64,000 bases of DNA from a virus. The position numbers were made by a program, and so were the translations under genes. Position 1 is the stretch's first letter; each line of letters starts with the position of its first letter. The notes under the pieces were generated by a model that saw only the letters and a list, made by a program, of their open reading frames with translations, searched no databases and was not told the origin of the DNA. Below, in pieces: positions 9,801 to 48,367 of this stretch. The stretch is from IMG/VR virus record IMGVR_UViG_3300008259_004660, positions 120,825 through 184,824 of that record; one strand, 5' to 3'.

Positions 9801-9809
9801 ATATTTATA
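9801..9809 (+). promoter_or_regulatory. ATATTTATA upstream element (putative late promoter)
   Basis: 5 nt before ATG 9815; recurrent intergenic motif. Confidence 0.55.
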
Positions 9810-13015: not shown

Positions 13016-13312
13016 ATGCCAGAACTACCATCCACTCAAAGAACATCATTAACAACAGATCTAAAGGCCAGATATGAACAGTCTGGAAAAAATTTGGCCA
13101 ATGTTGGCGGCGGCAGTGCCAAAGATGCTGGAAAATTGGCTACAAACTTGATCGATAATACCGCAGTTGGACAAGGAAGAGAATGGGCACAAAAGCAATT
13201 TGGTTTAAAAGCTTCTACTGGCGTGACCAGTTTCACACAAAATGGTCTGCAATATTCGACCAATGTCTTGAAGGTAAATACCTCAAAATACGCTCCAAGC
13301 GGTCGTCTGTAA
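13016..13312 (+). CDS. Hypothetical protein, 98 aa
   Basis: AGGAG Shine-Dalgarno at 13005-13009 and ATATTTATA element upstream. Confidence 0.7.
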   Translation: MPELPSTQRTSLTTDLKARYEQSGKNLANVGGGSAKDAGKLATNLIDNTAVGQGREWAQKQFGLKASTGVTSFTQNGLQYSTNVLKVNTSKYAPSGRL

Positions 13313-13332
13313 GTTAATTTATAAATGGTTAT

Positions 13333-13824
13333 ATGAAAGTACTTGGACTTGACTTGTCCACAACTACTTGTGGTTGGGCCATAACAGAAAACAAAATTAT
13401 ATTGGCCGCTGGCTTTGTTGATATATCCGACGTTGAGAAATATGACACAAAAGCTGATCTTATTATTAAAGCCCTAATTGGTCATACATTTGATAAAATA
13501 ATGATAGAAGAAAGTTTGTTTGGATTTGCTGGCGGCGGCACATCTCAACAAGTCATCATTAAATTGGTCAAGAACAAGGCAGTGATTGGTTATATACTTG
13601 AAAACTATTACAAAGTGGGTGTAGAGTCTATTCATGCTCAAACTGCTCGTAAAAAGGCTTTGGGAGCAGCCAGAATCAAGGGCGTAAAGCCCAAGGTATT
13701 TGTAAAAGAATCTATTGAGCGAATGTATGATATGACTCCTTGGATTATAAAAAATACCAAAGGAAATCCAGACAAGCGAATGGAAGATATGTATGATGCT
13801 ATCGTGCTTTCTCTGGCTGGTTGA
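13333..13824 (+). CDS. ruvC: RuvC-like Holliday junction resolvase
   Basis: VLGLDLSTTTCGWAI first strands, IMIEE, and C-terminal MEDMYDAI acidic residues of the RNase H fold. Confidence 0.8.
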   Translation: MKVLGLDLSTTTCGWAITENKIILAAGFVDISDVEKYDTKADLIIKALIGHTFDKIMIEESLFGFAGGGTSQQVIIKLVKNKAVIGYILENYYKVGVESIHAQTARKKALGAARIKGVKPKVFVKESIERMYDMTPWIIKNTKGNPDKRMEDMYDAIVLSLAG

Positions 13825-13860
13825 TATTTATTATTATAACTTTTAACAAAAAATACTATT

Positions 13861-14343
13861 ATGAAAAGAAGTGAACTAAAACAATTGATTAGAGAAACGA
13901 TTGAAGAAATTTCAGCAGATACAGCCAGACGAGCGGCTGATAAGGCAAAGGAGTTGGGAAGATATCAACAAGCGGGCAGATTACAACTAACTGCTCAAAA
14001 AAAGGATGTGGCGGCGTTTGGTGGAGATGTAAAAATAGAAAAGATTAAAATCGGAGAAACCGGTATACTTTCCAGTGCAGAAATGCTAAAATTGGGTAAA
14101 ACTAAAGATGGTAAACCCGGTATTTCTATCCGAGTAAAAGAACCCAACCCAGTAGCACACTATTATAAAGAAAGCGCCCCCTTCACCTACAAAATATATA
14201 ATCTGGTAGACAACGATCCACATATAACCACCGAGGATAAAACTAAAGTGAAAGTTGGTCGCCAAGATAGAATGAAGTTGATAAAAGCATTCAAATCTAT
14301 GGGCGTTGATATTAATCCCAATAAAATAAACATAATCGATTGA
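13861..14343 (+). CDS. Hypothetical protein with N-terminal LKQLIRETIEE motif (putative internal head protein)
   Basis: N-terminus MKRSELKQLIRETIEE is nearly identical to MTRNELKQIIRETIEG at 38682. Confidence 0.7.
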   Translation: MKRSELKQLIRETIEEISADTARRAADKAKELGRYQQAGRLQLTAQKKDVAAFGGDVKIEKIKIGETGILSSAEMLKLGKTKDGKPGISIRVKEPNPVAHYYKESAPFTYKIYNLVDNDPHITTEDKTKVKVGRQDRMKLIKAFKSMGVDINPNKINIID

Positions 14344-29417: not shown

Positions 29418-29426
29418 ATATTTATA
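29418..29426 (+). promoter_or_regulatory. ATATTTATA upstream element
   Basis: 4 nt before the ATG of the 1300-aa protein. Confidence 0.55.
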
Positions 29427-29430
29427 TCAT

Positions 29431-32400
29431 ATGGACATTTCTATAACCAATCTCAAAAAGTATGTTTTTGAGCCTAAGACAGAGTCTTTGCGACTAAAGC
29501 GTGCCAATGAGATATTGGGGCAGGGAATGATTGCTACGGAAAAAGTGGATGGCACAAAACTTACTCTTGTTCGTACTAATCAGACTGATCCGAATGATTA
29601 TACCAAGAATTGGGTTGTAGCATATAAGGGAACTGTATTATATCCAAAAGAGTTTGCATACCTTACTCCACAGGGAAAAAAAGATATATCTCAATCATCT
29701 GTTGGTATAGGCCAATATGCTTTGATTTTTGATCATTTGGAAAAAATCAATAACAAGATTGCTAGTATTCCAAAAAGCACGGAGTTCAGTGTTGAATTTG
29801 CGCAGAACAAGGATACTCTCACAAGAACATATGTTCAGAAAGGTGGAATGTTCTTAAGAAGTTATGGTGAGGTGTCATATCGTATTGTTGGTGGTGGGTT
29901 GAATACTGTTCCGAAACAAGAGATCACAGACTATACCAACGTAAAAAGAATGGCAGATCTTTTGGAAATTAGCGCGTTTCCTATTTTCTTTCAGGGCAAA
30001 ATAACAAGAGAAAATGTAGCAAAATATCCATCAATTGCGCCAAAAATGATGAGCGCCGATTGGAATAATCCATTGGATGTGTTAACCAAGTTTTCTGATG
30101 CTATGCTGTCTATACCATCTACTCTTGGTGGTACAACGGAGGGCGTGGTACTGAAACTTGATAATGGAAGCTTTTACAAAATTGTTCAAGCTGACCAATA
30201 TAGCTCTGATGTAAGAGGTGCTAAGAAAGATTTGTATAAACTTGAGCCAGAAGCGGCCACATCATATTTCCAACAGATCAGAGCACTTATTCAAAAAGTA
30301 TTTGATACCATTGGCACGGATGGAAAGACAGAAGAAGATATCATATCCGACACAAACTTTTACATTGCCAAAAATGAAAAAAGCTTGGCTAAATTTTTTG
30401 ATGCATTGCAGAAGATTGCTGGAAACAAAAAGAACCTCGTACAGATCAAGGATGATATTCACGACACTGTTCGTCTTATGACTTCAAAGCAGGAACTCCT
30501 TGGGTCAAAAACAAAATCAATCGCGCTTCTTCCTATTGCTGGCAAACCACTACACATTGGACATTGGAAACTGATTGAAAAGGCGGCAAATGAAAATGAT
30601 AATGTTGTGGTCTATACATCAACAACCGACCGTGTGCGTAAAGGAGAATTTCCGATATATGGCGATGATTTTGTGCAGATATGGAGTGATATGCTCATTC
30701 CATCATTGCCAAAGAATGTAAAAGTGAAATTTGTTGATTCTCCATTAAGATCTGTCATGCATGAACTTGGATGGTTTGAACAAAGACTTACTCAAGACGC
30801 TGCAAATGTACCAGTCATTAATCTATATTCAGACAAAGAGGATATTGAAACAAATTTCAAGCAAGAAGATCTGAACAAGTATCCAGAATTATTGAAAGCT
30901 GGAAAGATCAATAAAGTTGGCGTAGAAAGAACAAGTACGGTCAATGTCAGCGGCACAAAGATGAGAGAATTCTTGCAGAACAATGACAAGGACTCCTTCA
31001 TGAAATATTTACCTCCTATATCAACCAAGGATAAAGAACAAATATGGAATATTCTTTCATCTCGCAGACCAAGTGATCTTGCTGAAATAAATCCATACGC
31101 TGTATTGGCTGAAAAACTGATTAATGAAGTTGCAAATGAAATATTGAATGAAGGCGGATGGAGAAATCCAGAGACACAAGAATGGGAAGTTACACCAAAG
31201 ATGGTGGCAAAGATCGTGGAAGACACTAACAAATTTTTGAATGATTTCAATGCATGGTCTGGATTATCCAAGTTGTCAACCAAAGGTCCGACAGGAAGTG
31301 GAAAATATTACAAGAACGACTTGAATGATCCAAGTATAACTTATGGAGATATTGATATTCAACTTGTATTGCCCGTTGAAAGCAATGAAAGAAAAAATCA
31401 ATTAGAAGCCAATAAAATTTTTGGAGACAAGATCCGTGAGTTCATAAAGACCAAAAAACCAAGCTATATTCACGACGCAACAAATGATCCAGATTTTGGA
31501 ATTGGATACTTGATATTCAATGTGGATGGTAAAAAAGTTCAAGTTGATCTTGTACTATCATATACTGTTTCAGCTGATTGGACGAGTGTAAGAACAACGC
31601 CAGAAAAAGGATTGAAGGGATTTGTCACAGGAATGATGTTAAGTGCATTGAGTGACACATTGAATGTTGTTCTTGGGTCAAGCACCAATCCGTATATCAA
31701 CACTGTTGATGGAAAGGTTGTATCATCCTCAATCAAGAAAGATGCTGTGCAAAAATTCCTAAAGCCAAATGAAGTATTTGCCGAGATTGTACGATTTTAT
31801 GGTGAAATGGCGGACATTGAAAACCCAGACTTATCTTTATTGGTTGGTTATATGGGCCTTGATGCCAACGACCCTTCATTAAAAAAGAAATGCCAAACCG
31901 TGGTTGCTTTGGCAAATACACTTGAAAAGAATGGAATATTTGACGCTGGAGTCATAACCTCCAAGGATGGTATAACAATCAAAAGCAGAAAACAATTTGT
32001 TGATCGCGTAAGAACCACATACATCGATATGATGCAGCGAGCAAAAACAGCCAAAAAACTTGAAAAAGCACAAACACCAAGCGCCATGAGAACAATAGAA
32101 AAAATAAAAAATCATGCTGATCTGGGAATACAGATGGCAAACGAACTTATCAAAGAACATTATACACTTCTGATGGAATCTGGTAAATCCATAGCCGCCG
32201 TGGACCCAAAAACGCCAAAGATGGTAAATGGTCAGCCAGCACAGGCAACAACCAAATTAAGAATTGTTGATCCGCAGGGCAAGGATGTGCATTCAGCAGT
32301 GTCAAAGGACATCAAGGAACTTGTGTATGTATTGAATGCCAAGGTCGGTTTTTGGAAAAAGAATAATCCGTACATTGAAAATGGATTTATATTCAATGGT

Positions 32401-33333
32401 AGTTCACAATTTCTAATGGATCCAAACAAGTTTGGTGTGTTGAGCAAATACAAAGATTCTTTTGGTGACATAGATGTTATCATTCCAAAATCAAAATTGG
32501 ATGCTTTGACATCATTTTTGGACAGCATTGATGACAATAAAGCTGATTGGAATCCGACAACTCAAAACAGATTGTCTAGTAAGTTTTATTATGTTGGACG
32601 CACGAAGAGTTATGCATCCATTCCAGATCAACTTGTAACACTTTGGTATTATGATCCAATGAAGCAAGTTGTTCAAGTGGACTTTGAAGGTGATGAAATG
32701 TTTCTTGATCCGCAAGGATATGAAAAGCCAAGCGAGTGGACAAAATTCAGCAAAGATTCTCCGTGGGAAGATTTGACCGTAGGTATCAAGGGATTGGCTG
32801 GGGCATTAATGCTTCGCTCATTAGCAAGAGCAACAACAGTATTACCAAATGCAGTTGTGTTGACGCCGGGCGCAGTCAAGAAAGTTCAGTCTGGTGCAGT
32901 CAAGGAACTTACCGATAAGGAAGTTACTAAAGCAGCACAGCACAGTATTCCATCTGCATACACATTAAATACTGGCGGTGGTGGTACTGGTATACGTAAG
33001 GCATACGAATTAGTAAAGACAATGCCATATAATGGGAAGATGGTTGATGCATATAGATTTGTGGAAGCCAAAGAAACAAAACCAGAAGACAGAATCACGG
33101 ATGTTGGCAGAATATTTGAAATATTGTTCAAAAAGAAAGCATCGCCTGAAGAAAGAGCTGAATTTCGCAGCTATCAGGGACTGTTAAGACTAATGAAGAA
33201 ATATTTGGACAAGAAAACCATCGACATTGCTATGAATAGATTCACGGAAGTTTTGGCTGGCGAAGGTTTAAATCCAAAGGAATATGCTTCTGTGCAAAAG
33301 GCTACGAAAGATATTCTTGGATTGTCTATATAA
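29431..33333 (+). CDS. 1300-aa multidomain protein: ligase-type nucleotidyltransferase + HIGH-type nucleotidyltransferase + two Pol-beta-superfamily nucleotidyltransferases
   Basis: ATEKVDGTK (KxDG) with EGVVLK and YKIV; AGKPLHIGH (HxGH); TGSG...YGDIDIQ...VQVDL; NGSS...FGDIDVI...VQVDF. Confidence 0.75.
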   Translation: MDISITNLKKYVFEPKTESLRLKRANEILGQGMIATEKVDGTKLTLVRTNQTDPNDYTKNWVVAYKGTVLYPKEFAYLTPQGKKDISQSSVGIGQYALIFDHLEKINNKIASIPKSTEFSVEFAQNKDTLTRTYVQKGGMFLRSYGEVSYRIVGGGLNTVPKQEITDYTNVKRMADLLEISAFPIFFQGKITRENVAKYPSIAPKMMSADWNNPLDVLTKFSDAMLSIPSTLGGTTEGVVLKLDNGSFYKIVQADQYSSDVRGAKKDLYKLEPEAATSYFQQIRALIQKVFDTIGTDGKTEEDIISDTNFYIAKNEKSLAKFFDALQKIAGNKKNLVQIKDDIHDTVRLMTSKQELLGSKTKSIALLPIAGKPLHIGHWKLIEKAANENDNVVVYTSTTDRVRKGEFPIYGDDFVQIWSDMLIPSLPKNVKVKFVDSPLRSVMHELGWFEQRLTQDAANVPVINLYSDKEDIETNFKQEDLNKYPELLKAGKINKVGVERTSTVNVSGTKMREFLQNNDKDSFMKYLPPISTKDKEQIWNILSSRRPSDLAEINPYAVLAEKLINEVANEILNEGGWRNPETQEWEVTPKMVAKIVEDTNKFLNDFNAWSGLSKLSTKGPTGSGKYYKNDLNDPSITYGDIDIQLVLPVESNERKNQLEANKIFGDKIREFIKTKKPSYIHDATNDPDFGIGYLIFNVDGKKVQVDLVLSYTVSADWTSVRTTPEKGLKGFVTGMMLSALSDTLNVVLGSSTNPYINTVDGKVVSSSIKKDAVQKFLKPNEVFAEIVRFYGEMADIENPDLSLLVGYMGLDANDPSLKKKCQTVVALANTLEKNGIFDAGVITSKDGITIKSRKQFVDRVRTTYIDMMQRAKTAKKLEKAQTPSAMRTIEKIKNHADLGIQMANELIKEHYTLLMESGKSIAAVDPKTPKMVNGQPAQATTKLRIVDPQGKDVHSAVSKDIKELVYVLNAKVGFWKKNNPYIENGFIFNGSSQFLMDPNKFGVLSKYKDSFGDIDVIIPKSKLDALTSFLDSIDDNKADWNPTTQNRLSSKFYYVGRTKSYASIPDQLVTLWYYDPMKQVVQVDFEGDEMFLDPQGYEKPSEWTKFSKDSPWEDLTVGIKGLAGALMLRSLARATTVLPNAVVLTPGAVKKVQSGAVKELTDKEVTKAAQHSIPSAYTLNTGGGGTGIRKAYELVKTMPYNGKMVDAYRFVEAKETKPEDRITDVGRIFEILFKKKASPEERAEFRSYQGLLRLMKKYLDKKTIDIAMNRFTEVLAGEGLNPKEYASVQKATKDILGLSI

Positions 33334-33393: not shown

Positions 33394-34017
33394 ATGAAGA
33401 AAAATATAGATATTGTCAGAGATTATTTGAACGGTGAACGCCCTGTGATACAGGTTGGATATCGTGGTGATATGGACAAATATATCATCAGAAAAGTTGG
33501 AGAACGTTGGACTGATTCCAGTGGAAAAGAATGGGAACAAAAAGATTATGGACCCGTTGCCGTGACGAGAGTTTCGGATATTATCCGCGAGGAAATGAAT
33601 GATAAATGTGTATGTTGTAAGAAAGAAATAAGATGGGGAACAAGACAAGATCGTAAAATGTATTATCGTACAAAGAAATGTTTGGATTGTGTTGTGGAAG
33701 AAGAAACTCAATTAAAAATCAAAGGAAAATACAAATTGTACGAAACCAAGAAACTGCTTGAGAATGAACTATCGTATTTAAATGATATTCGACAGAAGCT
33801 AAAAGAGAGCAAGGATTATCTTGAAAGTGAAGATTCAAAGACCCTTACATGGGCAAATTCAACAGGTATGGTTGAAGAATGGAGTAATGAAGCAAGAGGA
33901 GAATTACTTGAAAACGTCAAAAAAGATTTTGTGACTTGTTTGAAAAAAATAAAAGCGGCTGAAAAGGAGTTGAAGAAAGTAGATGGAGAAATTAGCAAAG
34001 TTCTTACCCCAAGCTGA
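33394..34017 (+). CDS. Hypothetical protein with CxxC...CxxC and a C-terminal coiled coil
   Basis: CVCC and CLDC pairs; 207 aa; two genes upstream of the large terminase. Confidence 0.7.
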   Translation: MKKNIDIVRDYLNGERPVIQVGYRGDMDKYIIRKVGERWTDSSGKEWEQKDYGPVAVTRVSDIIREEMNDKCVCCKKEIRWGTRQDRKMYYRTKKCLDCVVEEETQLKIKGKYKLYETKKLLENELSYLNDIRQKLKESKDYLESEDSKTLTWANSTGMVEEWSNEARGELLENVKKDFVTCLKKIKAAEKELKKVDGEISKVLTPS

Positions 34018-34372
34018 TGTAATTGATGCATTGGCTCATAGGGTGAAATCAAGATTTTCATCGTCCGATGGGAAATGTGAATACATGGCCCAAGAACTTG
34101 TAAAGGAACTAAGAAGCAGAGGAATAAGAGCGGAGCATGTGATGGGGATATTCACATTGGATGAACCGGGAGCATGGAAATATAGATCGGATGAAGATGA
34201 AAATTTGGATGAATATCAAGTCAATCACGATTGGGTAAATGTTGAAGGAAAAATATTGGATATATCAGCGGACCAATTCAAGAAATATGTTTATGTGAAC
34301 ATACCTGATGTGGTGTATATAAGTTACTCTGATCCATTATACAGATATTACGAGGAACTTGGACATGTCTGA
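33983..34372 (+). CDS. Small protein with a transglutaminase/papain-like Cys-His-Asp arrangement
   Basis: GKCEYMAQEL helix, VNHDWVNV strand, ILDISADQF; start codon uncertain (35-nt overlap upstream). Confidence 0.55.
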   Translation: MEKLAKFLPQADVIDALAHRVKSRFSSSDGKCEYMAQELVKELRSRGIRAEHVMGIFTLDEPGAWKYRSDEDENLDEYQVNHDWVNVEGKILDISADQFKKYVYVNIPDVVYISYSDPLYRYYEELGHV

Positions 34373-36011
34373 GGGTAAGACTAAAAATCTCAAAGATGTA
34401 ATCAGAGAAGAATACATCAAGTGCGCCAAAGATCCAATATACTTCATGAAGAAGTATGTGAAAATCCAACATCCTACACGCGGCACTTTGCCATTTATCA
34501 CATACCCATTTCAGGATAAAGCATTGGAAAACTTTGTTCATCATAACCAAAATATTATTCTTAAAAGCCGCCAAATGGGAATTACAACATTGGTAGCGGG
34601 ATATAGCATATGGTTGATGACGTTTCATAATGACAAACAGATACTTTGCTTGAGTATTACACAAGAAACATCCAAGGCAATTGTAACCAAAGTAAGATTT
34701 GCAAACGATAATTTACCAAGTTGGTTGAAAGTACCAGCAGTTGAAGATAACAGACTATCACTGAAACTAAAGAATGGATCCGAAATTAAAGCAGCAAGTA
34801 GTGCTGGTACATCTGGTCGTTCAAGTGCATTGTCATTGCTCGTAGTAGACGAAGCTGCGTTTATTGATAACATAGAAGAAATTTGGTTATCATCCCAATA
34901 CACATTATCAACGGGTGGTAAAGCAATTATCCTATCAACTCCGAATGGCGTAGGTAATTGGTTCCATAAGATGTGGACAGAATCCGAGGAAGGATTGAAC
35001 AGTATGAATAGAATCAGTCTTCCTTGGCATCTTCATCCAGAGCGAGATCAAAAATGGAGAGATGAACAAACCAAACTCTCTGGAGAAAGAGGAGCCGCCC
35101 AAGAATGTGATTGTGAATTCAGCACATCTGGTAACACTGTAATTGAAATTCCAATACTTGAATGGTACAGCAAGAATCAAGTAACAGAACCAATTGAAAA
35201 ACGGGGAATGGATAGAGGCTATTGGATATTTAAATATCCAGAAGCTGGAAAATCATATATGGTGAGCGCCGACGTAGCCCGTGGTGATGCATCAGATTAT
35301 AGCGCCGCTCAAATATTAGATATTGAAACAATGGAGCAAGTGGCAGAATATAAAGGAAAATTGCCAACCAAAGAATATGCTCGTGCGCTAATCACAATGG
35401 CAACAGAATACAATAATGCACTGCTTGTGATAGAAAACGCAAATGTTGGTTGGGCAGTCATACAGGAAGTATTGGACAACAGTTATCCAAATTTGTTTTA
35501 TAGTTCATCGGATCTTCAATATGTTGATGTCGAAAATCAAATGACCAACAAGATAAATGCGCAAGAAAAGAAGATGACTCCGGGGTTCACCACTTCAAAC
35601 AAGTCTAAGCCTCTTCTAATATCAAAGCTTGAAAGCTATTTCAGAAATAAGGAAGTTATTATTCATAGTAAAAGATTGGTTGAAGAATTACAAGTGTTTA
35701 TATGGAAGAGTGGTGCTGTGTCATCAAAGGCAGAAGCAATGGATGGATATAATGATGACCTTGTTATGTCTTTGGGAATTGGACTTTGGATAAGAGATGT
35801 CGCGCTAAGATTAAGAAAAGACTCAGAAACTATAACAAGAACCATACTTGATAGAATAGGGTCTACTTCAAATGACCAAGTAAAAGGCAACATGCAATCC
35901 TTGTATAGAAATACAAATCCATTTGGAACGCAGCCAAACCCGTGGCAAATGAAGGTTGGTGGTCATGGCTCAAGTCAGCAACCAATCGACTTAACATGGT
36001 TATTAAAATGA
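34359..36011 (+). CDS. terL: Terminase large subunit (T4 gp17-like)
   Basis: LKSRQMGITT Walker A, LLVVDEAAF Walker B, LSTPNG coupling motif, SADVARG RNase H nuclease, NDDLVM. Confidence 0.96.
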   Translation: MDMSEGKTKNLKDVIREEYIKCAKDPIYFMKKYVKIQHPTRGTLPFITYPFQDKALENFVHHNQNIILKSRQMGITTLVAGYSIWLMTFHNDKQILCLSITQETSKAIVTKVRFANDNLPSWLKVPAVEDNRLSLKLKNGSEIKAASSAGTSGRSSALSLLVVDEAAFIDNIEEIWLSSQYTLSTGGKAIILSTPNGVGNWFHKMWTESEEGLNSMNRISLPWHLHPERDQKWRDEQTKLSGERGAAQECDCEFSTSGNTVIEIPILEWYSKNQVTEPIEKRGMDRGYWIFKYPEAGKSYMVSADVARGDASDYSAAQILDIETMEQVAEYKGKLPTKEYARALITMATEYNNALLVIENANVGWAVIQEVLDNSYPNLFYSSSDLQYVDVENQMTNKINAQEKKMTPGFTTSNKSKPLLISKLESYFRNKEVIIHSKRLVEELQVFIWKSGAVSSKAEAMDGYNDDLVMSLGIGLWIRDVALRLRKDSETITRTILDRIGSTSNDQVKGNMQSLYRNTNPFGTQPNPWQMKVGGHGSSQQPIDLTWLLK

Positions 36012-36075: not shown

Positions 36076-37989
36076 ATGGCTGATCAAAAAGACTTATTTA
36101 GTAGACTGAAAAAGATGTTCTCTACGGACGTTATTGTTCGTAATGTGGGCGGAAAGAAAATCAAAGTTGTAGACACAGATGAAATACAATACGCAACAGA
36201 CAGAAATAGTTTGCGCGACCGTTTTAATCGCTTAAGAAGTTCAACATATAATCTTCATAATCGCGATTTGAGCATGGCATATCAGTCAAGCCGTCTTGAG
36301 TTATTCAGAGATTATGATGTAATGGACATGGATCCTATCATTGCATCTGCATTGGATATTTATAGCGATGAATGCCTTGTACCAAGTGAGTTTGGTAATG
36401 TTCTTACTATTCGATCCAAGAATGAAAATATCAAGCGCATTCTTCATAATTTGTTTTATGACATAATGAATGTTGAGTTCAACATGTGGAGTTGGACTCG
36501 TAACATGTGCAAATATGGAGATTTCTTTTTGCGCATGGAAATATCTCCCGAGTATGGTGTGTATCTTGTTCATCCAATCAGTCCATATGAAATCACACGC
36601 ATAGAAGGTAGTGATCCAAAGAACATCAATTATGTAAAATACCAACATGATGGTGTTGGCGGCGGAATGGAATATGAAAATTTTGAAATCGCACACTTTA
36701 GACTTTTGAGCGACAGCAATTTTCTTCCATATGGAAAATCGATGGTTGAACCAGCACGCCGTGTATGGAAGCAATTGAGCTTAATGGAAGATGCCATGCT
36801 TATTCATCGTATCATGCGTGCACCAGAAAAGAGAATATTCTCAATTGACGTTGGCAATATTCCTCCTGCTGATATTGACACGGCGATGCAAAAAATCATC
36901 AGCCAAGTCAAGAAAGTTCCATACATTGATGAGAAAACAGGAGATTATAATCTAAGATTCAATCTTAACAACATGATTGAAGACTTTTATCTGCCTGTTC
37001 GTGGCAGTGACAGTGGAACAAAGATCGATACGTTGCCGGGAATGGAATTCACTGGTATTGATGATCTTGAGTATATTAGAAACAAAATGATGGCCGCACT
37101 CAAGATTCCAAAGGCGTTTCTTGGATATGAAGAAGGATTAAGTGGCAAAGCGACACTTGCGGCGGAAGATGTAAGATTTGCTCGTACTATTGGGCGCATT
37201 CAGCGCATTCTTATTTCCGAATTAACCAAAATTGCAATTGTTCATTTGTATGTTCAAGGATATCAAGATGCATCTCTTGTTGACTTTGAATTGGAACTAA
37301 GTAATCCAAGCACAATCTTTGAACAAGAAAAATTGGAAATTTGGCAAAATAAAATCAATCTTGCATCGGATATGAAAGATAGCAATATGTTTAGCAAGAC
37401 ATGGATGTATAACAATATATTCAATATGTCAGATGTTGACATTGAAACATTGCAGAATGAGGTTGTTGGTGATAAAAAAGAAGAATGGAGACTGCAACAA
37501 ATTACTGATGAGGGCAGCGATCCTGCGTTTGCAACTGGTGGAGGTGAAGGTGCTACTGGTGGAGGTGGTGCAGCACCTGAACTTGGTGGCGGTGAAGGCG
37601 GTGGGGCGGAGGCTGGTGGAGAAGCTGGTGGATTGCCTCCGCTTGAAGAAGAACAGAAAGCCGACGAAGCCATTATTGACGAAGAAACAAGAAAAGATCG
37701 TGAACGTGGAAATCGCGATCAAACAGGAAACAAGGAAAAATATACATCTTCGCACACCAAAAACTTTGGGGAAGATCCTCTTGGTAACAAAGAAAACAAA
37801 GAAAAATCAAAAACAGAACGCAGAACTCGTCATATATACAGAAGCTCTGGATTGTCTTTAGAAGAAGATTTGAAGAATATAAAAAACTCCTTGAAAAGCA
37901 AGCATGTTAATAAACAAAGAAAGGTAATTGTAGAAGGAAAATCCATATTAGATGAATCCAATATCATTGAAGAGGATAAACCTCTCTAA
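36076..37989 (+). CDS. gp20: Portal protein (T4 gp20-like) with a low-complexity C-terminal extension
   Basis: IASALDIYSDE, AMLIHRIMRAPEKRIF.IDVGN, EDFYLPVRG..SGTKIDTLPG, ALKIPKAFL. Confidence 0.95.
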   Translation: MADQKDLFSRLKKMFSTDVIVRNVGGKKIKVVDTDEIQYATDRNSLRDRFNRLRSSTYNLHNRDLSMAYQSSRLELFRDYDVMDMDPIIASALDIYSDECLVPSEFGNVLTIRSKNENIKRILHNLFYDIMNVEFNMWSWTRNMCKYGDFFLRMEISPEYGVYLVHPISPYEITRIEGSDPKNINYVKYQHDGVGGGMEYENFEIAHFRLLSDSNFLPYGKSMVEPARRVWKQLSLMEDAMLIHRIMRAPEKRIFSIDVGNIPPADIDTAMQKIISQVKKVPYIDEKTGDYNLRFNLNNMIEDFYLPVRGSDSGTKIDTLPGMEFTGIDDLEYIRNKMMAALKIPKAFLGYEEGLSGKATLAAEDVRFARTIGRIQRILISELTKIAIVHLYVQGYQDASLVDFELELSNPSTIFEQEKLEIWQNKINLASDMKDSNMFSKTWMYNNIFNMSDVDIETLQNEVVGDKKEEWRLQQITDEGSDPAFATGGGEGATGGGGAAPELGGGEGGGAEAGGEAGGLPPLEEEQKADEAIIDEETRKDRERGNRDQTGNKEKYTSSHTKNFGEDPLGNKENKEKSKTERRTRHIYRSSGLSLEEDLKNIKNSLKSKHVNKQRKVIVEGKSILDESNIIEEDKPL

Positions 37990-38681: not shown

Positions 38682-38999
38682 ATGACACGCAACGAACTCA
38701 AACAAATCATTAGAGAAACAATTGAAGGTGTTCAGGCAGAAGCTGCCAAAGTTTCACCGTCTGGTACAACATATACTTTCAATCAACTTAACAAATTGCT
38801 AAGAGCAAACAAAATCATTGTATTTATTAAGTCCACGTATGATCAAGGACTCATTCAGATTGATAATGAAGACGGATTTTTCATGGACGAAGGTGATGAT
38901 GGTGATCAAGCAGTACATGCTGCTGGGGGAGGTTACAAGTATGAATTTGGTGCAGACTTTGAAGAAGTATATGTTGCTCAAAAAGTGAATCTTAAATAA
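38682..38999 (+). CDS. Hypothetical protein with LKQIIRETIE N-terminal motif
   Basis: Tight packing; shared N-terminal motif. Confidence 0.7.
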   Translation: MTRNELKQIIRETIEGVQAEAAKVSPSGTTYTFNQLNKLLRANKIIVFIKSTYDQGLIQIDNEDGFFMDEGDDGDQAVHAAGGGYKYEFGADFEEVYVAQKVNLK

Positions 39000-39490
39000 T
39001 GAAAGATACCAAACAAATCATTCGTGAACTTGTTGAAGAAGTCATAGAAGAAATGACAGCAACTGGTGCTGTTGCTGGTTATATGACTCCAGCGGCATTT
39101 CGTGGTCACAAGAGCAAAAAGAAGTCAGCTGAAAAATCAATGCCGGGAGGCAAAGTTGTTGGTAAAGAAGATACGGATGATACCACAGTAGGTGAAGGTG
39201 AAACACTTACACTTCGTCGTGATGCACACATAATGGAAGCTCGCAGTCGCTATCGCAATTTCAAAGAAAGCGACATGATGAAAAATCATGCCAAGATTTC
39301 ATACGGTATTAATCAAGCCAAGAAAATGCTTGGTGAAGTTGAATATCTGGTTGGAATCTGTGAAAGATTGAAGACAGAATGTGGATATAGCACAAATAAT
39401 TTGTGGGCACGTACTCAACCAGACATGAAAGAAATCCACAATCGTCTGAAGGAAATCGCCAAACGAATCAACAGAATGGGAAAACAATAA
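38999..39490 (+). CDS. Hypothetical protein with KQIIRELVEEVIEE motif (putative prohead core protein)
   Basis: TAATG overlap with the previous gene; EEMTATGAVAGY.TP.AF segment; C-terminal coiled coil. Confidence 0.7.
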   Translation: MKDTKQIIRELVEEVIEEMTATGAVAGYMTPAAFRGHKSKKKSAEKSMPGGKVVGKEDTDDTTVGEGETLTLRRDAHIMEARSRYRNFKESDMMKNHAKISYGINQAKKMLGEVEYLVGICERLKTECGYSTNNLWARTQPDMKEIHNRLKEIAKRINRMGKQ

Positions 39491-39494
39491 GACT

Positions 39495-40010
39495 ATGAAT
39501 CTAACCGACATTGCCAAGAAAATAATCAATGAAGACAGTTGGGGCACATTTCCATCTGCTGGTGGAAGCATGGCACCCGGTCGTTCTCCTACCGCAGTGT
39601 CTCCGGGACCAACCGCCAAAAGAGTTGACATTTCAAATCTTTACAAGAATTTCAAACTTGAGTTGGAAAAGCAAGAAGATGCACTCATTCAAAAATTTGA
39701 AGCTGATCTTAAAAAGAGCTTTTTGAAGAAAGTTGTAACTGTAAAAGCATCCAAGGGATCTGTTGGCCAAATTGAAAAGGAATATAATGTTACTGTCAAC
39801 AACATTGATGTTCGTTATATGAAAGACAAATATTATGTTGTGTTCACTGGTAAAGAAGGTAACGCATCTGAAAGTGAATATTACTTGGACGATTCTATCA
39901 TAACTGTGGATGATTCACCTGCTTCAATTTCAACCGTTGGAAGAACAGGTGGCATGTCAGTCCCAGAAGATGGCACCGCTGGAAAGAAAAACATCTTACC
40001 TCAAGGATAA
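39495..40010 (+). CDS. Hypothetical protein (MNLTDIAKKIINE N-terminus)
   Basis: 171-aa ORF tightly packed in the head operon. Confidence 0.7.
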   Translation: MNLTDIAKKIINEDSWGTFPSAGGSMAPGRSPTAVSPGPTAKRVDISNLYKNFKLELEKQEDALIQKFEADLKKSFLKKVVTVKASKGSVGQIEKEYNVTVNNIDVRYMKDKYYVVFTGKEGNASESEYYLDDSIITVDDSPASISTVGRTGGMSVPEDGTAGKKNILPQG

Positions 40011-40019
40011 TACAAACAT

Positions 40020-40646
40020 ATGAGCAAGCAACTACTAGTCGATTTTATTCCATTTGAGATTTCTCCTCAATTGTTAAGTGAAGCCAAAGCAAATCCAAAT
40101 GCACCATTGGTATTAAAGGGACCATTGCAGAAGGCTGGAGAAAAGAACCATAACGGTCGTGTATATCCACGCGAAGTATTGGAACGTGAAGTTGAAAAGT
40201 ATCAGCAAATCATCAAGGAACGTCGCGCACTTGGTGAACTTGATCACCCAGACAGTTCAGTCATCAATCTTAAGAATGTATGTCACAATGTAACAGAGTG
40301 CCATTGGGAAGGCGATACTGTTGTTGGTACAATTGAAATTCTTACTACACCAAGCGGTAACATTGCTCGCGATCTTATTCGTAACAATATCCGCATTGGT
40401 ATCAGCAGTCGTGGATTGGGCAGTGTTCGTCAAATGAACGAAAATACAGTTGAGGTTCAAGATGACTTTGAACTACTTTGCTTTGACCTTGTATCTTCGC
40501 CTTCAACACGCGGTGCATATATGAATCTTGCCGAAGGAATCAATCGTGACAAACAATTGATTGGTGGTACACAAGATCGTAAAGACATCAACAAGTATTT
40601 GAACATTGAAAATATCATTCGTGATATTCTTTCGGAAACACGTTGA
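40020..40646 (+). CDS. gp21: Prohead core protease (T4 gp21-like)
   Basis: N.NGRVYP, LGELDHP (His), GISSRGLGS (Ser), FDLVSSPST (Asp). Confidence 0.95.
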   Translation: MSKQLLVDFIPFEISPQLLSEAKANPNAPLVLKGPLQKAGEKNHNGRVYPREVLEREVEKYQQIIKERRALGELDHPDSSVINLKNVCHNVTECHWEGDTVVGTIEILTTPSGNIARDLIRNNIRIGISSRGLGSVRQMNENTVEVQDDFELLCFDLVSSPSTRGAYMNLAEGINRDKQLIGGTQDRKDINKYLNIENIIRDILSETR

Positions 40647-40938: not shown

Positions 40939-41577
40939 ATGAACAACAAGATAACCAATCCACTTCTTAAGCAACTTATTTCTGAAATTGCTAGTAAAGC
41001 AAATGAAGGAAGATTTGGATACAATCTTGTAAAGGAAGCAGACGCTAAGAAAGAAGATCCATTGGGTGATATACTTGGTGGAGAAGGTGGCGGTGAAGGC
41101 GAAAAGCAAGCGGTACCATCAGCCGCTCCATCAGCTGCACCAAAGGCACAGGCAAGTAAAGACGCTGCAACTGCTCCTTCGACGGATGCTGCTGCCGATG
41201 AAGCTGGTGCAGAAGATCCAAAAGAACTAGAAGCCGACGCCGCTAAGAAAAAAGCAGAGGTTGAAAAAGCAAAAGCTGATCTTAAAAAGGCAGAAGATGA
41301 GCTTGAACAAAATGCATATATCAAATTGAAGTCAGACAGCGGCGTCAAATATATGATTGGAAAAATTATTGGACAATCATTCAAAACAAATACCATAGAT
41401 GCGTTGGCATCTGAAATGGCGCAAAAATTGAAAATAACAACTCCAAATGATGCAGATTTGTTTGAAAAAGATATGGCATTGTATAAAAGCATTCCCGGAA
41501 TGGTTGAACTAATTGCAGCCATAAAAGAATTGGCCGTGGAAGAACCAAAATCTTCAGAAGAAAAATCTCCAGAATAA
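40939..41577 (+). CDS. Ala/Glu/Lys-rich putative prohead core or internal protein
   Basis: LLKQLISE N-terminal motif, low-complexity linker, ATATTTATA 4 nt upstream. Confidence 0.65.
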   Translation: MNNKITNPLLKQLISEIASKANEGRFGYNLVKEADAKKEDPLGDILGGEGGGEGEKQAVPSAAPSAAPKAQASKDAATAPSTDAAADEAGAEDPKELEADAAKKKAEVEKAKADLKKAEDELEQNAYIKLKSDSGVKYMIGKIIGQSFKTNTIDALASEMAQKLKITTPNDADLFEKDMALYKSIPGMVELIAAIKELAVEEPKSSEEKSPE

Positions 41578-41588
41578 AATATCAATTT

Positions 41589-42041
41589 ATGAATACATTG
41601 AAACTAAGACCACTTATCGAAAATTTTCAAGCTCCTTCAGAAGCTCCAAAAAAAGAATGGACCAGTGAATTAAAGAAAGCTGCATTGGAAAATATTGGTT
41701 GTTACAATGAATATGCTCAACATCTTCATCGCGAACAAAGTTTAATGGAAATATCACATAAGCTTTCTGAAATTGTAAAGAATGCCGAAGAACTTGCATT
41801 GCACGAAACAGAAAAATCATCTACCGACGGTAAACATTGGTTTGATGAGCAAACAGTAAGAAAAAATTTCGCAAACATGACCAAGGCTATTCAAGAATTC
41901 AACAAGTATGCAAAAGAAGCACACATTCTTGAACAAAGAATGCAAGCAACATACGAAGATATTGGTCATTTACTCGAACGTTATTACGAAGTAAAGAACC
42001 TTCAAGAAGGTCAGTCCGCAGTTAGCAAAATAGCAAAATAA
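41589..42041 (+). CDS. Helical hypothetical protein (LKLRPLIE N-terminus)
   Basis: 150-aa ORF in the head operon. Confidence 0.65.
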   Translation: MNTLKLRPLIENFQAPSEAPKKEWTSELKKAALENIGCYNEYAQHLHREQSLMEISHKLSEIVKNAEELALHETEKSSTDGKHWFDEQTVRKNFANMTKAIQEFNKYAKEAHILEQRMQATYEDIGHLLERYYEVKNLQEGQSAVSKIAK

Positions 42042-43463: not shown

Positions 43464-45080
43464 ATGTCAGACATCAAATCACTACTAACTGAGACAACCA
43501 ATCCAATGGTTAAGCTCATGAGCGAAACCCGTGGACTAGTGTCCAAATGGGAAAAGACTGGTCTTCTAGAAGGAATTAAGACCGACATGGAAAAATCACA
43601 CATGTCGATTCTTTTGGAAAACCAAGCAAAGCAACTAATCGACGAAGCTACCCGCACTGGTACTTCAGCTAACTCCGAACAATGGGCAGGCGTTGCTCTT
43701 CCATTGGTTCGCCGTGTTTTCGCTGAAATCGCCGCTAAGGAATTCGTCAGCGTTCAGCCAATGAACCTACCATCAGGTCTAGTATTCTATCTAGACTTCA
43801 AGTATGGTACCAACCAAGCTGGAAAACCAGCATTCGTAAACCAAAGCTTGTTCGGTGGAACAGGAACAAAGTTGGGTTCAACCGACAGCGCAGTCAATGG
43901 TCTATATGGCCAAGGCCGCTTCGGTTACACCATCAATGACGTTTCTGGAAGCTCAAACTTCACAGGAACAGCCACAACTGGTTCATGGTTGGATGCAAAG
44001 TTCGTTCCAGAACTATCATCATCAATCGTTGCTACCGAAATCATCAAGATCACCGTTGACATGGATCCAGACACATATGGAACCGATCTAAATGGTGCTC
44101 GCGCATTCACGATCTCTGGATCTGGAATCGTTGATTTCTACCCAGCATTCACAAGCGTTTCTGGAAACAATGTTTCGTTCATCGTTTCTGGTTCCGCAAT
44201 TGGTGCATCCCCATCCGTAAAGATCGTTTATCACAAGCAACCAGCACCAACAAGCCGTGGCGACTTCGAAGATCTCGGCGCAGGATTGCCAAATCAAACA
44301 GGTGTTGCCAATGACGTTGGAATTCCAGAAGTCAACCTAGAGTTGAAGTCCGAAGCCATCGTTGCAAAGACACGCAAGTTGAAAGCCGTCTGGACACCAG
44401 AATTGGCTCAAGACTTGAACGCATATCACTCAATCGACGCAGAAGCAGAATTGACTGCTCTATTGAGCGAATACGTTTCGATGGAAATCGACCTAGAAAT
44501 CCTCGACATGTTGGTAACAGCCGCTCCAACAGCAACAACCGAATACTGGTCAGCACGTATCGGTGACGAATATGACACAACACAAAACAAGTTCGTCGCA
44601 ACTGCTGCTAACCGTACAGCATACGTAAAGAGCACATGGTTCCAAACATTGGGCAACAAGATCCAAAAGGTCTCCAACAAGATCCACCAGTTGACACTAC
44701 GTGGTGGAGCAAACTTCCTAGTTTGCAGCCCAGACGTTGCAACCATCATCGAATCCATCCCTGGCTTCACAACCAACACAGATGGTGACCAAGCAAAGTT
44801 CGCAATGGGCGTTGCCAAGGTCGGTGCTCTAAGCAACCGTTGGACAGTATACAAGAACCCATACATGACCGACAACGTCATGTTGGTTGGTTTCCGTGGA
44901 AGCAACTTCCTAGAAACCGGCGCTGTATACGCTCCATACATCCCACTGATCCAAACACCATTGGTGTACGATCCAGTGAACTTCACACCACGCCGTGGTG
45001 TGATGACACGTTATGCAAAGAAGATGATCCGCCCAGAATTCTACGGCAAGATCGTCATCGGTGCATTGAACGAAGTCTAA
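43464..45080 (+). CDS. gp23: Major capsid protein (T4 gp23-like)
   Basis: LLENQAK, LPLVRR, VSVQPMNLPSGLVFYLDF, KTRKLKAVWTPELAQDL.AYH.IDAE.EL, YAPYIPL, GVMTRYA. Confidence 0.98.
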   Translation: MSDIKSLLTETTNPMVKLMSETRGLVSKWEKTGLLEGIKTDMEKSHMSILLENQAKQLIDEATRTGTSANSEQWAGVALPLVRRVFAEIAAKEFVSVQPMNLPSGLVFYLDFKYGTNQAGKPAFVNQSLFGGTGTKLGSTDSAVNGLYGQGRFGYTINDVSGSSNFTGTATTGSWLDAKFVPELSSSIVATEIIKITVDMDPDTYGTDLNGARAFTISGSGIVDFYPAFTSVSGNNVSFIVSGSAIGASPSVKIVYHKQPAPTSRGDFEDLGAGLPNQTGVANDVGIPEVNLELKSEAIVAKTRKLKAVWTPELAQDLNAYHSIDAEAELTALLSEYVSMEIDLEILDMLVTAAPTATTEYWSARIGDEYDTTQNKFVATAANRTAYVKSTWFQTLGNKIQKVSNKIHQLTLRGGANFLVCSPDVATIIESIPGFTTNTDGDQAKFAMGVAKVGALSNRWTVYKNPYMTDNVMLVGFRGSNFLETGAVYAPYIPLIQTPLVYDPVNFTPRRGVMTRYAKKMIRPEFYGKIVIGALNEV

Positions 45081-45971: not shown

Positions 45972-46646
45972 TCAGCCACCTGATTTAAACACAGAAGCAT
46001 TCCAATTCATTCTTTTCTTAACACCCTGATTGGTTGTTGTCTTATATTCTTTATGGTTTAAATATTCCTTGGCTGCGTCTTGGAATTTATATTGGTCCAA
46101 TAGCTTCATTGTTTCTGGACCAAGATCTCCTTTTTTTCCAAACCCTCTGAATCCCGCATTTATAATTGCGATTTTGATTGTAAGAGGAAATGTATCAAAT
46201 TTCTTCATGAGTCTTTTGGCAGTATCAATTGTTCTATTAATGTCTTTGTTCAACAATTTAATAGCTTCATCATCAGTAAGTCCTTTACTGAAATCTTCGC
46301 CTTGTTGTATTTTGTGACCATATGCAATAGTATCACTGCCACCTTCTAAACTTTTATGCGGAAACCATTTTTTCAATTGCTTGTTATATCCACCTCTTGG
46401 ATTATCTTTGCTGTTTTCAAATTTCATGATTACGTTGGCCGCTTTTGATGCAACATCTTCTACCTTGGCCGTACCACTAAAATCAATATCGGGCTGCGTA
46501 TAAGGCTTTCCAGCGGCACTTGACGCTGGTTGTGCATATGCGTGTTGCGCAGGAGGCATCACAAACTTTACTGGTGGTAAATCTGCCACAGGAGCTTCAA
46601 TCAATTTTTGTTCTTTTAGTAAATCTTTTAGTTTGATGATACTCAT
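45972..46646 (-). CDS. Lysozyme-like (GH24-related) muramidase with an LKDLLKE N-terminal motif
   Basis: KFE...DTIAYGH...LTDDEAIKLLNKDI...AIINAGF...AAKEYL...R lysozyme-like pattern; the only minus-strand gene; own ATATTTATA on the minus strand. Confidence 0.7.
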   Translation of the reverse strand: MSIIKLKDLLKEQKLIEAPVADLPPVKFVMPPAQHAYAQPASSAAGKPYTQPDIDFSGTAKVEDVASKAANVIMKFENSKDNPRGGYNKQLKKWFPHKSLEGGSDTIAYGHKIQQGEDFSKGLTDDEAIKLLNKDINRTIDTAKRLMKKFDTFPLTIKIAIINAGFRGFGKKGDLGPETMKLLDQYKFQDAAKEYLNHKEYKTTTNQGVKKRMNWNASVFKSGG

Positions 46647-46652
46647 ATATAT

Positions 46653-46661
46653 TATAAATAT
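46653..46661 (-). promoter_or_regulatory. ATATTTATA upstream element on the minus strand
   Basis: Plus strand reads TATAAATAT; 6 nt before the ATG of the minus-strand lysozyme gene. Confidence 0.55.
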
Positions 46662-46736: not shown

Positions 46737-47963
46737 ATGGCAGACACATCGATAAATTACACCGTAGATCAGGATCGCGTGAGATGGCCGGGGTCTGGTT
46801 CCGCAATCACACCCGGAAGCGGCTCAACTCCTTTTGGATTTTACGATGGTGATGCAGTTTTTCAGTTGGACGCGCCGAATGCAGCAAAATGGGCGGCAAC
46901 AAGATTGGGCTATCCAATCACCGACATTGAAATGATTGACAAAAATTTTTATGCATGTTTTGAAGAAGCATGTTTTGAATATAGCGCACAAGTAAATCAG
47001 TTTAATATTCGCAACAACATGGGTGTGTTGCAAGGAAGTTCAGCCAATGTTAATTTGACCCAAACAAATGTTGCAGCAAGTGGACTGCCACAATTGATCA
47101 GATTGGCTGAAGGATATGGAACAGAGTTTGGTGTTGGTGGAAAAGTAGATTGGAAAAAAGGATTTATACATGTTGAAGCAAAAAAGCAAACATATGATCT
47201 TCAGGCTTTGTGGGGAAATGTAAGTGAAAGTTTTGATCGTATTGAAATTCGCAGAATTTTTCATCAGATGCCACCCGCTGCTGCAAGAATTTATGATCCA
47301 TTCAGCATGACTGGTATGAGCTATAGCAATGTATTGAATGAAATGGGATTTGCTGGGTATTCTCCTGCCACACAATTTTTGATGACGCCAATCTTTGAAG
47401 ACTTGCTAAGAATGCAGGCAATTGAATTTAATGACCTTGTTAGAAAATCGGCATGGAGTTTTGAATTGGTAAACAACAAATTGAAATTATTCCCAATTCC
47501 AACATATGATTTCACGATGTATTTTGAATATCTGCTTGTGAAAGATCGCGACAGTCAGGGCATATACAATTCTGGTTCATTCTATGTTTCTGGCAGCAAC
47601 ACTGTTGTTTCATCATCTGTGATTGGAGATTATAGCAATGTGCCTTACAACAATATTCCATACACCACCATAAACAGTGTAGGTAAACAATGGATAAGAA
47701 AATATTTCCTCGCGCTTTGTAAAGAAGTGCTTGGAAGCATTCGCCAAAAGTATCAAACCATTCCAATTCCCGGAGCAGAAGTCACACTTGATGGTGGAGA
47801 ATTGCGTCAAGAAGCATCGTCTGAAAAAGAAGCATTGATTACTCAGCTAAGAGAAAATCTTGAAGCCACTGGCAGAAAAGCTCAAATGGAACTAAGAGAA
47901 GCCGAGGCACAACAACTTCAAGCAACACTCCAAAAAGTTCCGATGGGAATTTATATTGGATGA
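46737..47963 (+). CDS. Neck protein (T4 gp13-like head-tail adaptor)
   Basis: RLGYPITDIEM...CFEEA, WIRKYFLALCKE.LG..R.KY..IP.PG.EVTLDG.ELRQEA. Confidence 0.8.
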   Translation: MADTSINYTVDQDRVRWPGSGSAITPGSGSTPFGFYDGDAVFQLDAPNAAKWAATRLGYPITDIEMIDKNFYACFEEACFEYSAQVNQFNIRNNMGVLQGSSANVNLTQTNVAASGLPQLIRLAEGYGTEFGVGGKVDWKKGFIHVEAKKQTYDLQALWGNVSESFDRIEIRRIFHQMPPAAARIYDPFSMTGMSYSNVLNEMGFAGYSPATQFLMTPIFEDLLRMQAIEFNDLVRKSAWSFELVNNKLKLFPIPTYDFTMYFEYLLVKDRDSQGIYNSGSFYVSGSNTVVSSSVIGDYSNVPYNNIPYTTINSVGKQWIRKYFLALCKEVLGSIRQKYQTIPIPGAEVTLDGGELRQEASSEKEALITQLRENLEATGRKAQMELREAEAQQLQATLQKVPMGIYIG

Positions 47964-48367
47964 AACCTTTCTCGTTACTAGATCAAGTATTGTCCGAGAG
48001 TGAAAGAAAAAGAATGAAATTTGTCGGACTAAAAAGAACTCTCAAACCGAGAGGCAAGTTCACATCATTGGAAAGAAAATATTATCTCATGCTGAAGAAC
48101 TTGGATGTCTATTATGTTCCGCAATATCCGATGGGAGGAAGATATTACGACGCATATCTGCCAGATCAAAACATACTATTTGAATTTGATGGTTCATTTT
48201 GGCATCCAAAGAATGAAGATGATGCAAAATATGATTTTCAGAAAAAAGCATTTAAGGTTGATGAACTGAAAAACAAGATGGCTGAAAAGAAAGGAATGAA
48301 GATCATTCGCATTCGTGAAGATGAACCAATCACATTGGAACAGATGAAAAAATTGATCTTCTCATAA
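47960..48367 (+). CDS. DUF559/Vsr-like PD-(D/E)xK endonuclease
   Basis: TSLE, QYPMGG.YYDAYL...ILFEFDGSFWH, KN...G..IIRI.E. Confidence 0.75.
   Translation: MKPFSLLDQVLSESERKRMKFVGLKRTLKPRGKFTSLERKYYLMLKNLDVYYVPQYPMGGRYYDAYLPDQNILFEFDGSFWHPKNEDDAKYDFQKKAFKVDELKNKMAEKKGMKIIRIREDEPITLEQMKKLIFS

Follow-up and report, generated by a model that had tools for sequence, protein, structure and literature searches.

The window analysed here is a 64,000-nucleotide stretch (positions 120,825 to 184,824) of the 184.8-kb IMG/VR record IMGVR_UViG_3300008259_004660, which comes from an uncultured T4-like freshwater phage; coordinates below are those of the window, and features lie on the plus strand unless stated. 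At 29431..33333, the gene P0001 encodes in a single open reading frame a 1300-residue chain of nucleotidyltransferase (NTase) domains. On balance we think it probable that this protein is a late-made polyprotein of capsid cargo, which would be cut by a protease of the T4 gp21 type into three enzymes that are delivered with the DNA and likely repair RNA. The polyprotein would be built into the prohead alongside the core proteins, where the phage's own S77-family protease would cut after Glu574 (ILNE/GGWR, the slash marking the proposed cut) and Glu916 (LLME/SGKS), and perhaps also after LIKE909. The first unit released would be a 65-kDa RNA-ligase/NMNAT-like adenylyltransferase, and the second and third would be family-X-polymerase-like NTases of about 38 and 43 kDa. 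All three would remain in the head, enter the next host with the DNA, and there most likely serve as a prepared kit for filling and sealing broken RNA, the probable target being tRNA that host defence nucleases have cut.

The original prediction for this gene, made from the letters alone, was of a late polyprotein of four enzymes, packaged and cut by the gp21-like protease; its observation is confirmed and its interpretation partly supported, while presence in virions, cleavage and injection are steps that we infer. Upstream of P0001 a stop codon occurs at 10 codons with no other start codon between, leaving no alternative start, and 37 full-length homologues share 53-94% identity. Every motif that had been listed is present in the translation, as are both quoted linker strings (residues 551-577 and 903-918), and the catalytic residues are invariant in an alignment of 27 full-length homologues, to which the conservation counts below refer unless another sample is given. 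The domain types also held, with motifs and structure matches identifying a ligase (D1), a HIGH-type nucleotidyltransferase (D2) and two polymerase-beta-type NTases (D3 and D4). Two AlphaFold models were built with family alignments as input, one of residues 1-580 and one of residues 540-1300. In the first (predicted local distance difference test, pLDDT, 89.5; predicted template modelling score, pTM, 0.84), D1 and D2 form one compact body with no joint between them, and because of this the protein comprises three units rather than the four that had been foreseen. The second reached a pLDDT of 88.6 and a pTM of only 0.53, and we therefore read D3 and D4 as independent bodies. Thus all four predicted domains are there and the last two are independent, but the supposed independence of D1 from D2 did not stand.

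The units are connected by two joints. Linker 1 (residues 548-574; 31072..31152) is a variable amphipathic helix ending ILNE574, with a candidate site between E574 and G575. Linker 2 (residues 887-916; 32089..32178) is formed by the C-terminal helix of D3 (residues 883-915) and ends LLME916, with candidate sites after LIKE909 and between E916 and S917. Between folded parts, pLDDT drops below 50 only at residues 567-575 (ANEILNEGG) and 909-920 (EHYTLLMESGKS); because both motifs fall exactly in these segments, the joints are considered flexible at the proposed cuts. The linkers are the least conserved parts of the protein, with column identities of 53% (linker 1) and 65% (linker 2) against 72-79% in the domains. 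Within them, E574-G-G-W-R and E916-S-G are invariant in all 27 sequences and E909 is found in 25. The P3 position, two residues before the P1 glutamate, is hydrophobic in 26 of 27 sequences at site 1 (L/F/V/I), the remaining one being an alignment gap, and in 25 of 27 at site 2, where the rest are again alignment gaps; P2 varies at both sites. Only six hydrophobic-x-E sites reach 90% conservation or better: folded D2 contains three, and the others are at 574, 909 and 916. T4 gp21 cuts after L/I-X-E and thus removes N-terminal capsid-targeting sequences (CTSs) from its substrates (PMC9026906). Judged by sequence, the pattern at the joints is this gp21 rule, L/I-x-E with a small residue after it.

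A wider survey of 192 family proteins, in which distinct junctions were counted, gave the same picture. At the start of D3, 55 distinct junctions were found, with Glu at P1 in 54 and a hydrophobic residue at P3 in 54; at the start of D4 there were 85, with Glu at P1 in 80 and L/I/V at P3 in 82, and P2 was variable in both sets. Taken together, about 95% of some 140 distinct junctions have Glu at P1 and a hydrophobic residue at P3.

Relatives of P0001 occur in several architectures, and the boundaries of dropped, split and reordered modules all lie at the joints. Beside the full D1D2-D3-D4 chain (about 1300 residues) we found D1D2-D4 chains from which D3 is dropped (about 950-1030 residues), D1D2-D3 chains (about 910 residues) followed by a separate D4 gene with stop and start codons 1 nt apart, D1D2 genes that overlap a D4 gene by ATGA, a permuted D1D2-D4-x-D3 form (P0081), and chains that carry D3 or D4 behind other modules (P0082-P0084). 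In P0082, a different KxDG/EGYVL ligase-like domain (DUF6267) is joined to the same NTase modules through VNE/GG joints. P0083 (873 residues) and P0084 (1096 residues), from other phages, are chains of an MNT-like NTase, an unknown module and D3; compared with P0083, P0084 has extra whole modules, one of them annotated as ParB/sulfiredoxin-like, placed exactly at hydrophobic-x-E joints (VNE/AA, LLE/GGW). In cyanophages, Lak phages and Pseudomonas/Dickeya jumbo phages, the modules of these two proteins are encoded separately.

The expectation that relatives would encode the domains as separate genes starting with a tag was borne out. Stand-alone D4 proteins without a tag start MGGN(A/V) (L044-L049, Vibrio phage Va1 and P0112). 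Tagged stand-alone D4 proteins carry a leader whose hydrophobic-x-E end stands directly before the same GGN or SG. In L043 the tagged form reads MKSFNQFITENKILNE/GGN, and its first ten residues resemble the T4 CTS, MKTYQEFIAE (PMC8442874). Leaders end LIEE/GGN in L050 and VLLQE/GGN in L052, and an 18-residue leader, MKNYTQLFWDSVKSLIKE/SG, ending LIKE/SG, is found in L054-L069; fused D4 forms have VIKE/GGN and VVNE/GGN. The untagged enzymes thus begin at the proposed cut, which would therefore reproduce their natural N-terminus. The D1 end of the family behaves likewise: untagged forms start M-LDISIK, tagged forms have a leader of 11-35 residues ending hydrophobic-x-E 1-7 residues before LD(I/V)SI, and split D1D2(D3) genes have their own leader with the same ending. 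In loci that encode D4 and D1D2 separately, the tags go together: the two genes are tagged in L043, L056-58, L066, L068 and L069 and untagged in L045/46, L048, L049, L051 and Vibrio phage Va1, and no mixed pair was found among these loci. With two or more lineages among the tagged loci, the independent events are few, but the pattern is clean. Neither an S77 protease nor a T4 portal was found in L043, L050 or L052, which have tagged stand-alone forms, but these records are only 17-68% complete, so the result is uninformative. The CP220 protein gp027, annotated as a virion structural protein and encoded next to a D1D2 homologue, was considered as a relative of D3 or D4 and rejected as unrelated to both.

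These comparisons bear on whether the protein is cut at all. P0001 could instead be a late-made cytoplasmic multidomain repair enzyme that stays whole, with the joints serving only as flexible hinges and the E-G-G and E-S-G segments capping the NTase module at its N-terminus or binding its substrate. In favour of this, flexibly linked multidomain enzymes are frequent in repair, P0001 lacks a leader at its N-terminus, and the untagged homologues clearly work without a packaging signal; conservation also extends to the P' side of the sites (EGGWR and ESG..A....K..K), as a function within the domain would have it. Yet D4 does not need the Glu and the hydrophobic residue, because the untagged M-GGN forms lack them. 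The same P3/P1 rule, moreover, applies to the leaders of D1, a domain not related to the NTases, the tags of partner genes co-vary, and the location is strictly in the head module. We consider an uncleaved enzyme unlikely.

The genomic setting also agrees with packaging and cleavage. In about 35 related IMG/VR loci the polyprotein gene lies directly upstream of a conserved series, p207-(p129)-TerL-portal-head core-S77 protease, and the predicted proximity to terminase and portal genes is correct: the large terminase subunit, recognised from its translation by eye only and conserved beside the portal gene in related loci, is at 34359..36011, and the portal protein (PHROG 213, E 3.7e-63) is at 36076..37989. 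The gene at 40020..40646 encodes, as had been proposed, a prohead protease of the T4 gp21 family (Peptidase_S77, PF03420, E 2.8e-25, 89 bits against a cut-off of 27; PHROG 207, E 1.5e-53), our candidate for the processing enzyme. The major capsid protein (43464..45080; PHROG 138, E 2.6e-73) has an N-terminal propeptide with several hydrophobic-x-E sites, including LIDE59/ATRTG, and small head-module proteins have leaders of the same kind, for example MNLTDIAKKIINE/D.

P0001 shares with these genes an upstream element that the original prediction had called late-type. The motif ATATTTATA at 29418..29426 lies 4 nt 5' of its ATG, and the window holds 12 copies where 1.7 are expected (sevenfold), 11 of the 12 on the plus strand and mostly just 5' of gene starts, including those of portal, head-core, baseplate-like and fibre genes. 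Sites are at 9801, 12987, 18623, 24677, 29418, 36038, 38016, 40926, 46724 and 52989 on the plus strand and at 46661 on the minus strand. The distance to the start codon is 2-30 nt, often 4-6 nt from an ATG, with no Shine-Dalgarno sequence between. Read on the gene strand, the motif is the reverse complement of the T4 late box TATAAATA; it may mark leaderless transcripts, an unusual late promoter or a translation signal. Because P0001 shares the motif with the head genes and its synteny with the head module is conserved, late co-expression with these genes is plausible. Cleavage by the gp21-type protease is strengthened considerably as a reading by the flexible joints, the conserved motif, the behaviour of the tags, the modularity, the head-gene synteny and the phage's own S77 protease taken together.

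The content of the three units speaks to their function. D1 (residues 1-262; 29431..30216) has the motifs KVDG at 38-41, EGVVLK at 237-242 and YKIV at 249-252, and the residues of ligase motifs I, III, IIIa, IV and V (K38-x-D40-G41, E122-F123, F141-L142, E237-G238-x-V240 and K250) are invariant in 40 homologues. Its best structural matches are the Naegleria RNA ligase NgrRnl and T4 Rnl2 (VIA Z 11.7; 185-187 residues, 3.7-4.0 Å), followed by REL1 (VIA Z 10.4), and DNA ligases score lower (Z about 8-8.6); a Foldseek match to T4 Rnl2 had a value of 2.5e-8. The Pfam family RNA_ligase (PF09414) reached 17.3 bits on P0001, below its cut-off of 27, and a precomputed match to it is present on some homologues. 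D1 is followed by a helical region that bridges to D2 (residues 263-357; 30217..30501; helices at 259-357 in the model), which aligns with helices at the C-terminal end of Trl1 and of archaeal Rnl3, with matches reaching model residues 336-354. From its modelled fold and motifs, D1 is predicted to be an RNA ligase of the Rnl2/Rnl5/Trl1 kind.

D2 (residues 361-547; 30511..31071) has its HIGH motif at residues 375-378, and both H375-x-G377-H378 and S507-G-T-x-M-R512 are invariant, corresponding to the HxGH and ISxTxxR-type motifs on a Rossmann fold. It matches NaMNAT (VIA Z 12.1), NadM (11.8) and PPAT (11.6), and its PHROG matches are annotated as cytidyltransferase; on P0001 the Pfam family CTP_transf_like was below cut-off, and NCBIfam returned HIGH-motif matches only, all sub-threshold. 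On this model D2 is a predicted HIGH adenylyltransferase of the NMNAT/PPAT type.

D3 (residues 575-916; 31153..32178) has TGSG at 621-624, GDIDI at 639-643 and VQVD at 703-706, with G622-S623, D640, D642 and D706 invariant, and its fold and motifs are those of a family-X-polymerase-like NTase. It aligns with the palm and thumb of polymerase beta (residues 142-335; Z about 10, 180 residues, 3.6 Å), with PolX of African swine fever virus (ASFV; Z 8.7, 162/176 residues), and with polymerase mu (Z 9.8), polymerase lambda (9.1) and TdT (8.9). OAS, TENT and CD-NTase proteins match over a core of about 110-125 residues only (Z 6-7.4), and cGAS shares the NTase core at Z values in the same range. The alignment covers palm and thumb only, with no counterpart of the 8-kDa dRP-lyase domain or the helix-hairpin-helix fingers; ASFV PolX likewise lacks the 8-kDa and fingers domains. 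D4 (residues 917-1300; 32179..33330), with NGSS at 989-992, GDIDV at 1012-1016 and VQVD at 1081-1084, and with G990-S991, D1013, D1015 and D1084 invariant, is placed as a second NTase by its paralogy with D3, by PHROG 19290 and by its stand-alone homologues. Direct BLASTP between D3 and D4 was not significant (E 0.11), and for this reason a profile comparison was needed; it gave a probability of 82.5% and E 9.8e-6 over 142 columns that include the GS, DxD and QVD motifs and a G-(I/L)-K-G helix. By these profiles, D3 and D4 are distant paralogues. The predicted fold of D4 relies on this paralogy, on its motifs and on a single weak match, to ANT(2'') (Z 5.5).

Library matches of P0001 are weak overall, its PHROG families being without an assigned function or annotated as cytidyltransferase. 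No PolX Pfam family was found on P0001 or on 17 D4 homologues, and a Pfam scan of those 17 returned no family. Neighbours of the NTase domains in the Atlas and BFVD are viral proteins, uncharacterised or automatically named. A PDB sequence search gave nothing useful, and megablast against phages found no near relative.

Judged from their motifs, all four catalytic centres look intact, and the genes around untagged relatives indicate what they might act on. Untagged D4 and D1D2 genes are adjacent in distant phages (as listed, L043, L045, L048, L051 and Vibrio phage Va1), and because this pairing recurs in several such phages we take the ligase unit and the family-X-like NTase to work together. 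In L049, D1D2 is followed by genes for a CCA-adding enzyme (PolyA_pol head plus HD) and a metallophosphoesterase and then by D4; in L051 a T4-type Pnkp lies 3 kb upstream; and Vibrio phages have a tRNA nucleotidyltransferase and a hydrolase nearby. These neighbours suggest repair of RNA, possibly tRNA. Given the RNA-repair neighbours and the partnership of D1D2 with the NTase, we therefore propose fill-and-seal repair of broken RNA, with tRNA as the likeliest target. In L049, a distant relative, a gene at 13226-14077 is IMP dehydrogenase/GMP reductase-like and has a match to a Hint (intein-type) domain at its end.

The main alternative to RNA repair is repair of DNA nicks and gaps in the style of ASFV PolX and its ligase, in which the enzymes would be cut and packaged as proposed and would fill gaps and seal nicks in the injected or packaged phage genome. 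It is the family X DNA polymerases that D3 matches best, polymerase beta and ASFV PolX among them; DNA ligases also match D1, and in P0082 these NTase modules are coupled to another ligase-like domain with KxDG. Against this, D1 fits RNA ligases better (Z 11.7 versus about 8.5) and has a Trl1/Rnl3-like helical extension in place of an OB domain, D3 and D4 are without the 8-kDa and fingers domains, and the untagged relatives adjoin a CCA-adding enzyme, Pnkp and a phosphoesterase. A DNA substrate therefore seems to us improbable. Less probable still, and in our view very unlikely, is a role in rebuilding or consuming nucleotide cofactors or signals rather than in nucleic-acid repair; the NMNAT-like domain might, for example, act on NAD+, or the NTases on second messengers of defence. 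D2 does have NaMN/NMN adenylyltransferases as its best matches (Z about 12), and the NTase core is common to cGAS, OAS and CD-NTases; nevertheless, D2 is rigidly fused to an RNA ligase in the model, D3 matches polymerases over palm and thumb and the signalling enzymes over the core alone, no NAMPT or Nudix partner is present, and the gene neighbourhoods indicate RNA repair.

Several points weigh against our preferred reading, that of packaged cargo cut into three enzymes for RNA repair. Hydrophobic-x-E is a short and common motif, the junctions counted are related sequences rather than independent events, and one stand-alone D3 (P0114) has Gln at P1. The predicted likeness of the linkers to the N-terminal tags of small head proteins was weak: in Smith-Waterman comparisons with the phage's head-protein tags they scored slightly above shuffled sequences, with a best z of 4.6 and a p of 0.002 that is uncorrected for the 26 comparisons. 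In P0001 and its nearest clade the protein begins MDISI, without an N-terminal leader; more distant four-domain forms such as P0041 keep one, and the leader has been lost in P0001's own clade. Targeting of P0001 would thus need the internal amphipathic helices, which is not established for CTSs of the T4 type. The cultured relatives, from Vibrio and Campylobacter phages, are all untagged, and tagged homologues come from uncultured phages only. As to function, the polyprotein lacks a module for healing ends, be it kinase or phosphatase, the scheme assigns no role to the NMNAT-like D2, and D4 is barely sampled in structure searches.

If the polyprotein is processed as proposed, T4-like phages use the logic of viral polyproteins to fill the head with exchangeable sets of enzymes, RNA repair arrives ready-made rather than being expressed after entry, which changes the view of early counter-defence, and the joints provide a natural design rule for putting foreign enzymes into phage heads. 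The comparison also defines an uncharacterised phage family of family-X-like NTases that are always partnered by a ligase. In a stronger and more speculative version, which we hold possible though somewhat doubtful, capsids would be pre-loaded with a complete RNA repair kit that mends tRNAs and mRNAs cut by abortive-infection nucleases from the first second, D3 and D4 would be a new class of RNA gap-filling polymerase, and the joints would be a general plug-in system for cargo. Our literature search found no paper on enzyme polyproteins joined at prohead-protease sites.

Other features were seen in the head module and in that of relatives. Two small conserved genes (33394..34372), encoding proteins of 207 and 129 residues, always stand between the polyprotein and terminase genes in the approximately 35 loci. 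The 207-residue protein (33394-34017) has a CxxC...CxxC zinc-ribbon-like cluster, and the 129-residue protein (33983-34372) has a weak papain-like Tox-PLDMTX match (E 0.008); they could be a small terminase subunit, a packaging accessory, or linked to the cargo. Short amphipathic leaders ending L/I-x-E (for example MSIIKLKDLLKEQKLIE/A) were seen at 38682-40010, 40939-42041 and 47960-48367, all small head-module proteins, and at 45972-46646 on the minus strand, a lone lysozyme-like gene; their leaders make these proteins candidates for further capsid targeting. In some close relatives the portal gene encodes 937-1077 residues rather than about 640 (L028:4204-7437, L031:13932-17018, L033:10788-13805 and L038:13565-16378), a difference that suggests an insertion, for instance of an intein or an additional domain.

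Among known systems, the giant phages phiKZ, 201phi2-1 and SPN3US have a gp21-related prohead protease that cuts many head proteins after Glu in a short motif, some of them at several sites, and a virion RNA polymerase is delivered with their DNA (PMC5694885, PMC10052503). Their proteases differ in belonging to family S80, with the motif S/A/G-x-E, and in the giant-phage literature we found no report of unrelated enzymes made as a chain and freed at the joints between modules. T4 Pnkp and Rnl1, together with Rnl2, Rnl5 and Trl1, resemble the present system in the ligase fold of D1, its KxDG and EGxVxK motifs and the lysine of motif V, and in that untagged relatives adjoin genes for Pnkp, a CCA-adding enzyme and a phosphoesterase. 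Unlike the cargo proposed here, the T4 repair enzymes are synthesised only after infection and not put into the capsid; the polyprotein in turn has no kinase/phosphatase module, joins its ligase to an NMNAT-like domain, and falls below the Pfam RNA_ligase cut-off. ASFV PolX with its ligase, polymerase beta with ligase III, and the kinetoplastid editosome (TUTase with REL1) share the logic of filling and then sealing, in which a minimal palm-and-thumb NTase with GS...DxD...D acts together with a ligase. The polyprotein departs from these pairs in having no PolX Pfam membership, no 8-kDa or fingers domain and two paralogous NTases. To our knowledge, the only T4 proteins described as capsid-targeted and processed by gp21 are single small ones and Alt. 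These T4 proteins, IPI, IPII, IPIII and Alt, are the closest system, having in common with the present phage the S77 protease family, the L/I-x-E rule and a small P1' residue. The relatives' leaders (MKSFNQFITE...) recall T4 MKTYQEFIAE, the polyprotein gene lies in the head module and shares the upstream motif of the head genes, and the proposed cargo is enzymatic, as is Alt. The T4 cargo consists of single proteins with one N-terminal leader, Alt being cut additionally at its C-terminus, whereas the polyprotein is a chain of enzymes with its cut sites at internal joints, is leaderless in P0001, and would carry enzymes of nucleic-acid repair.

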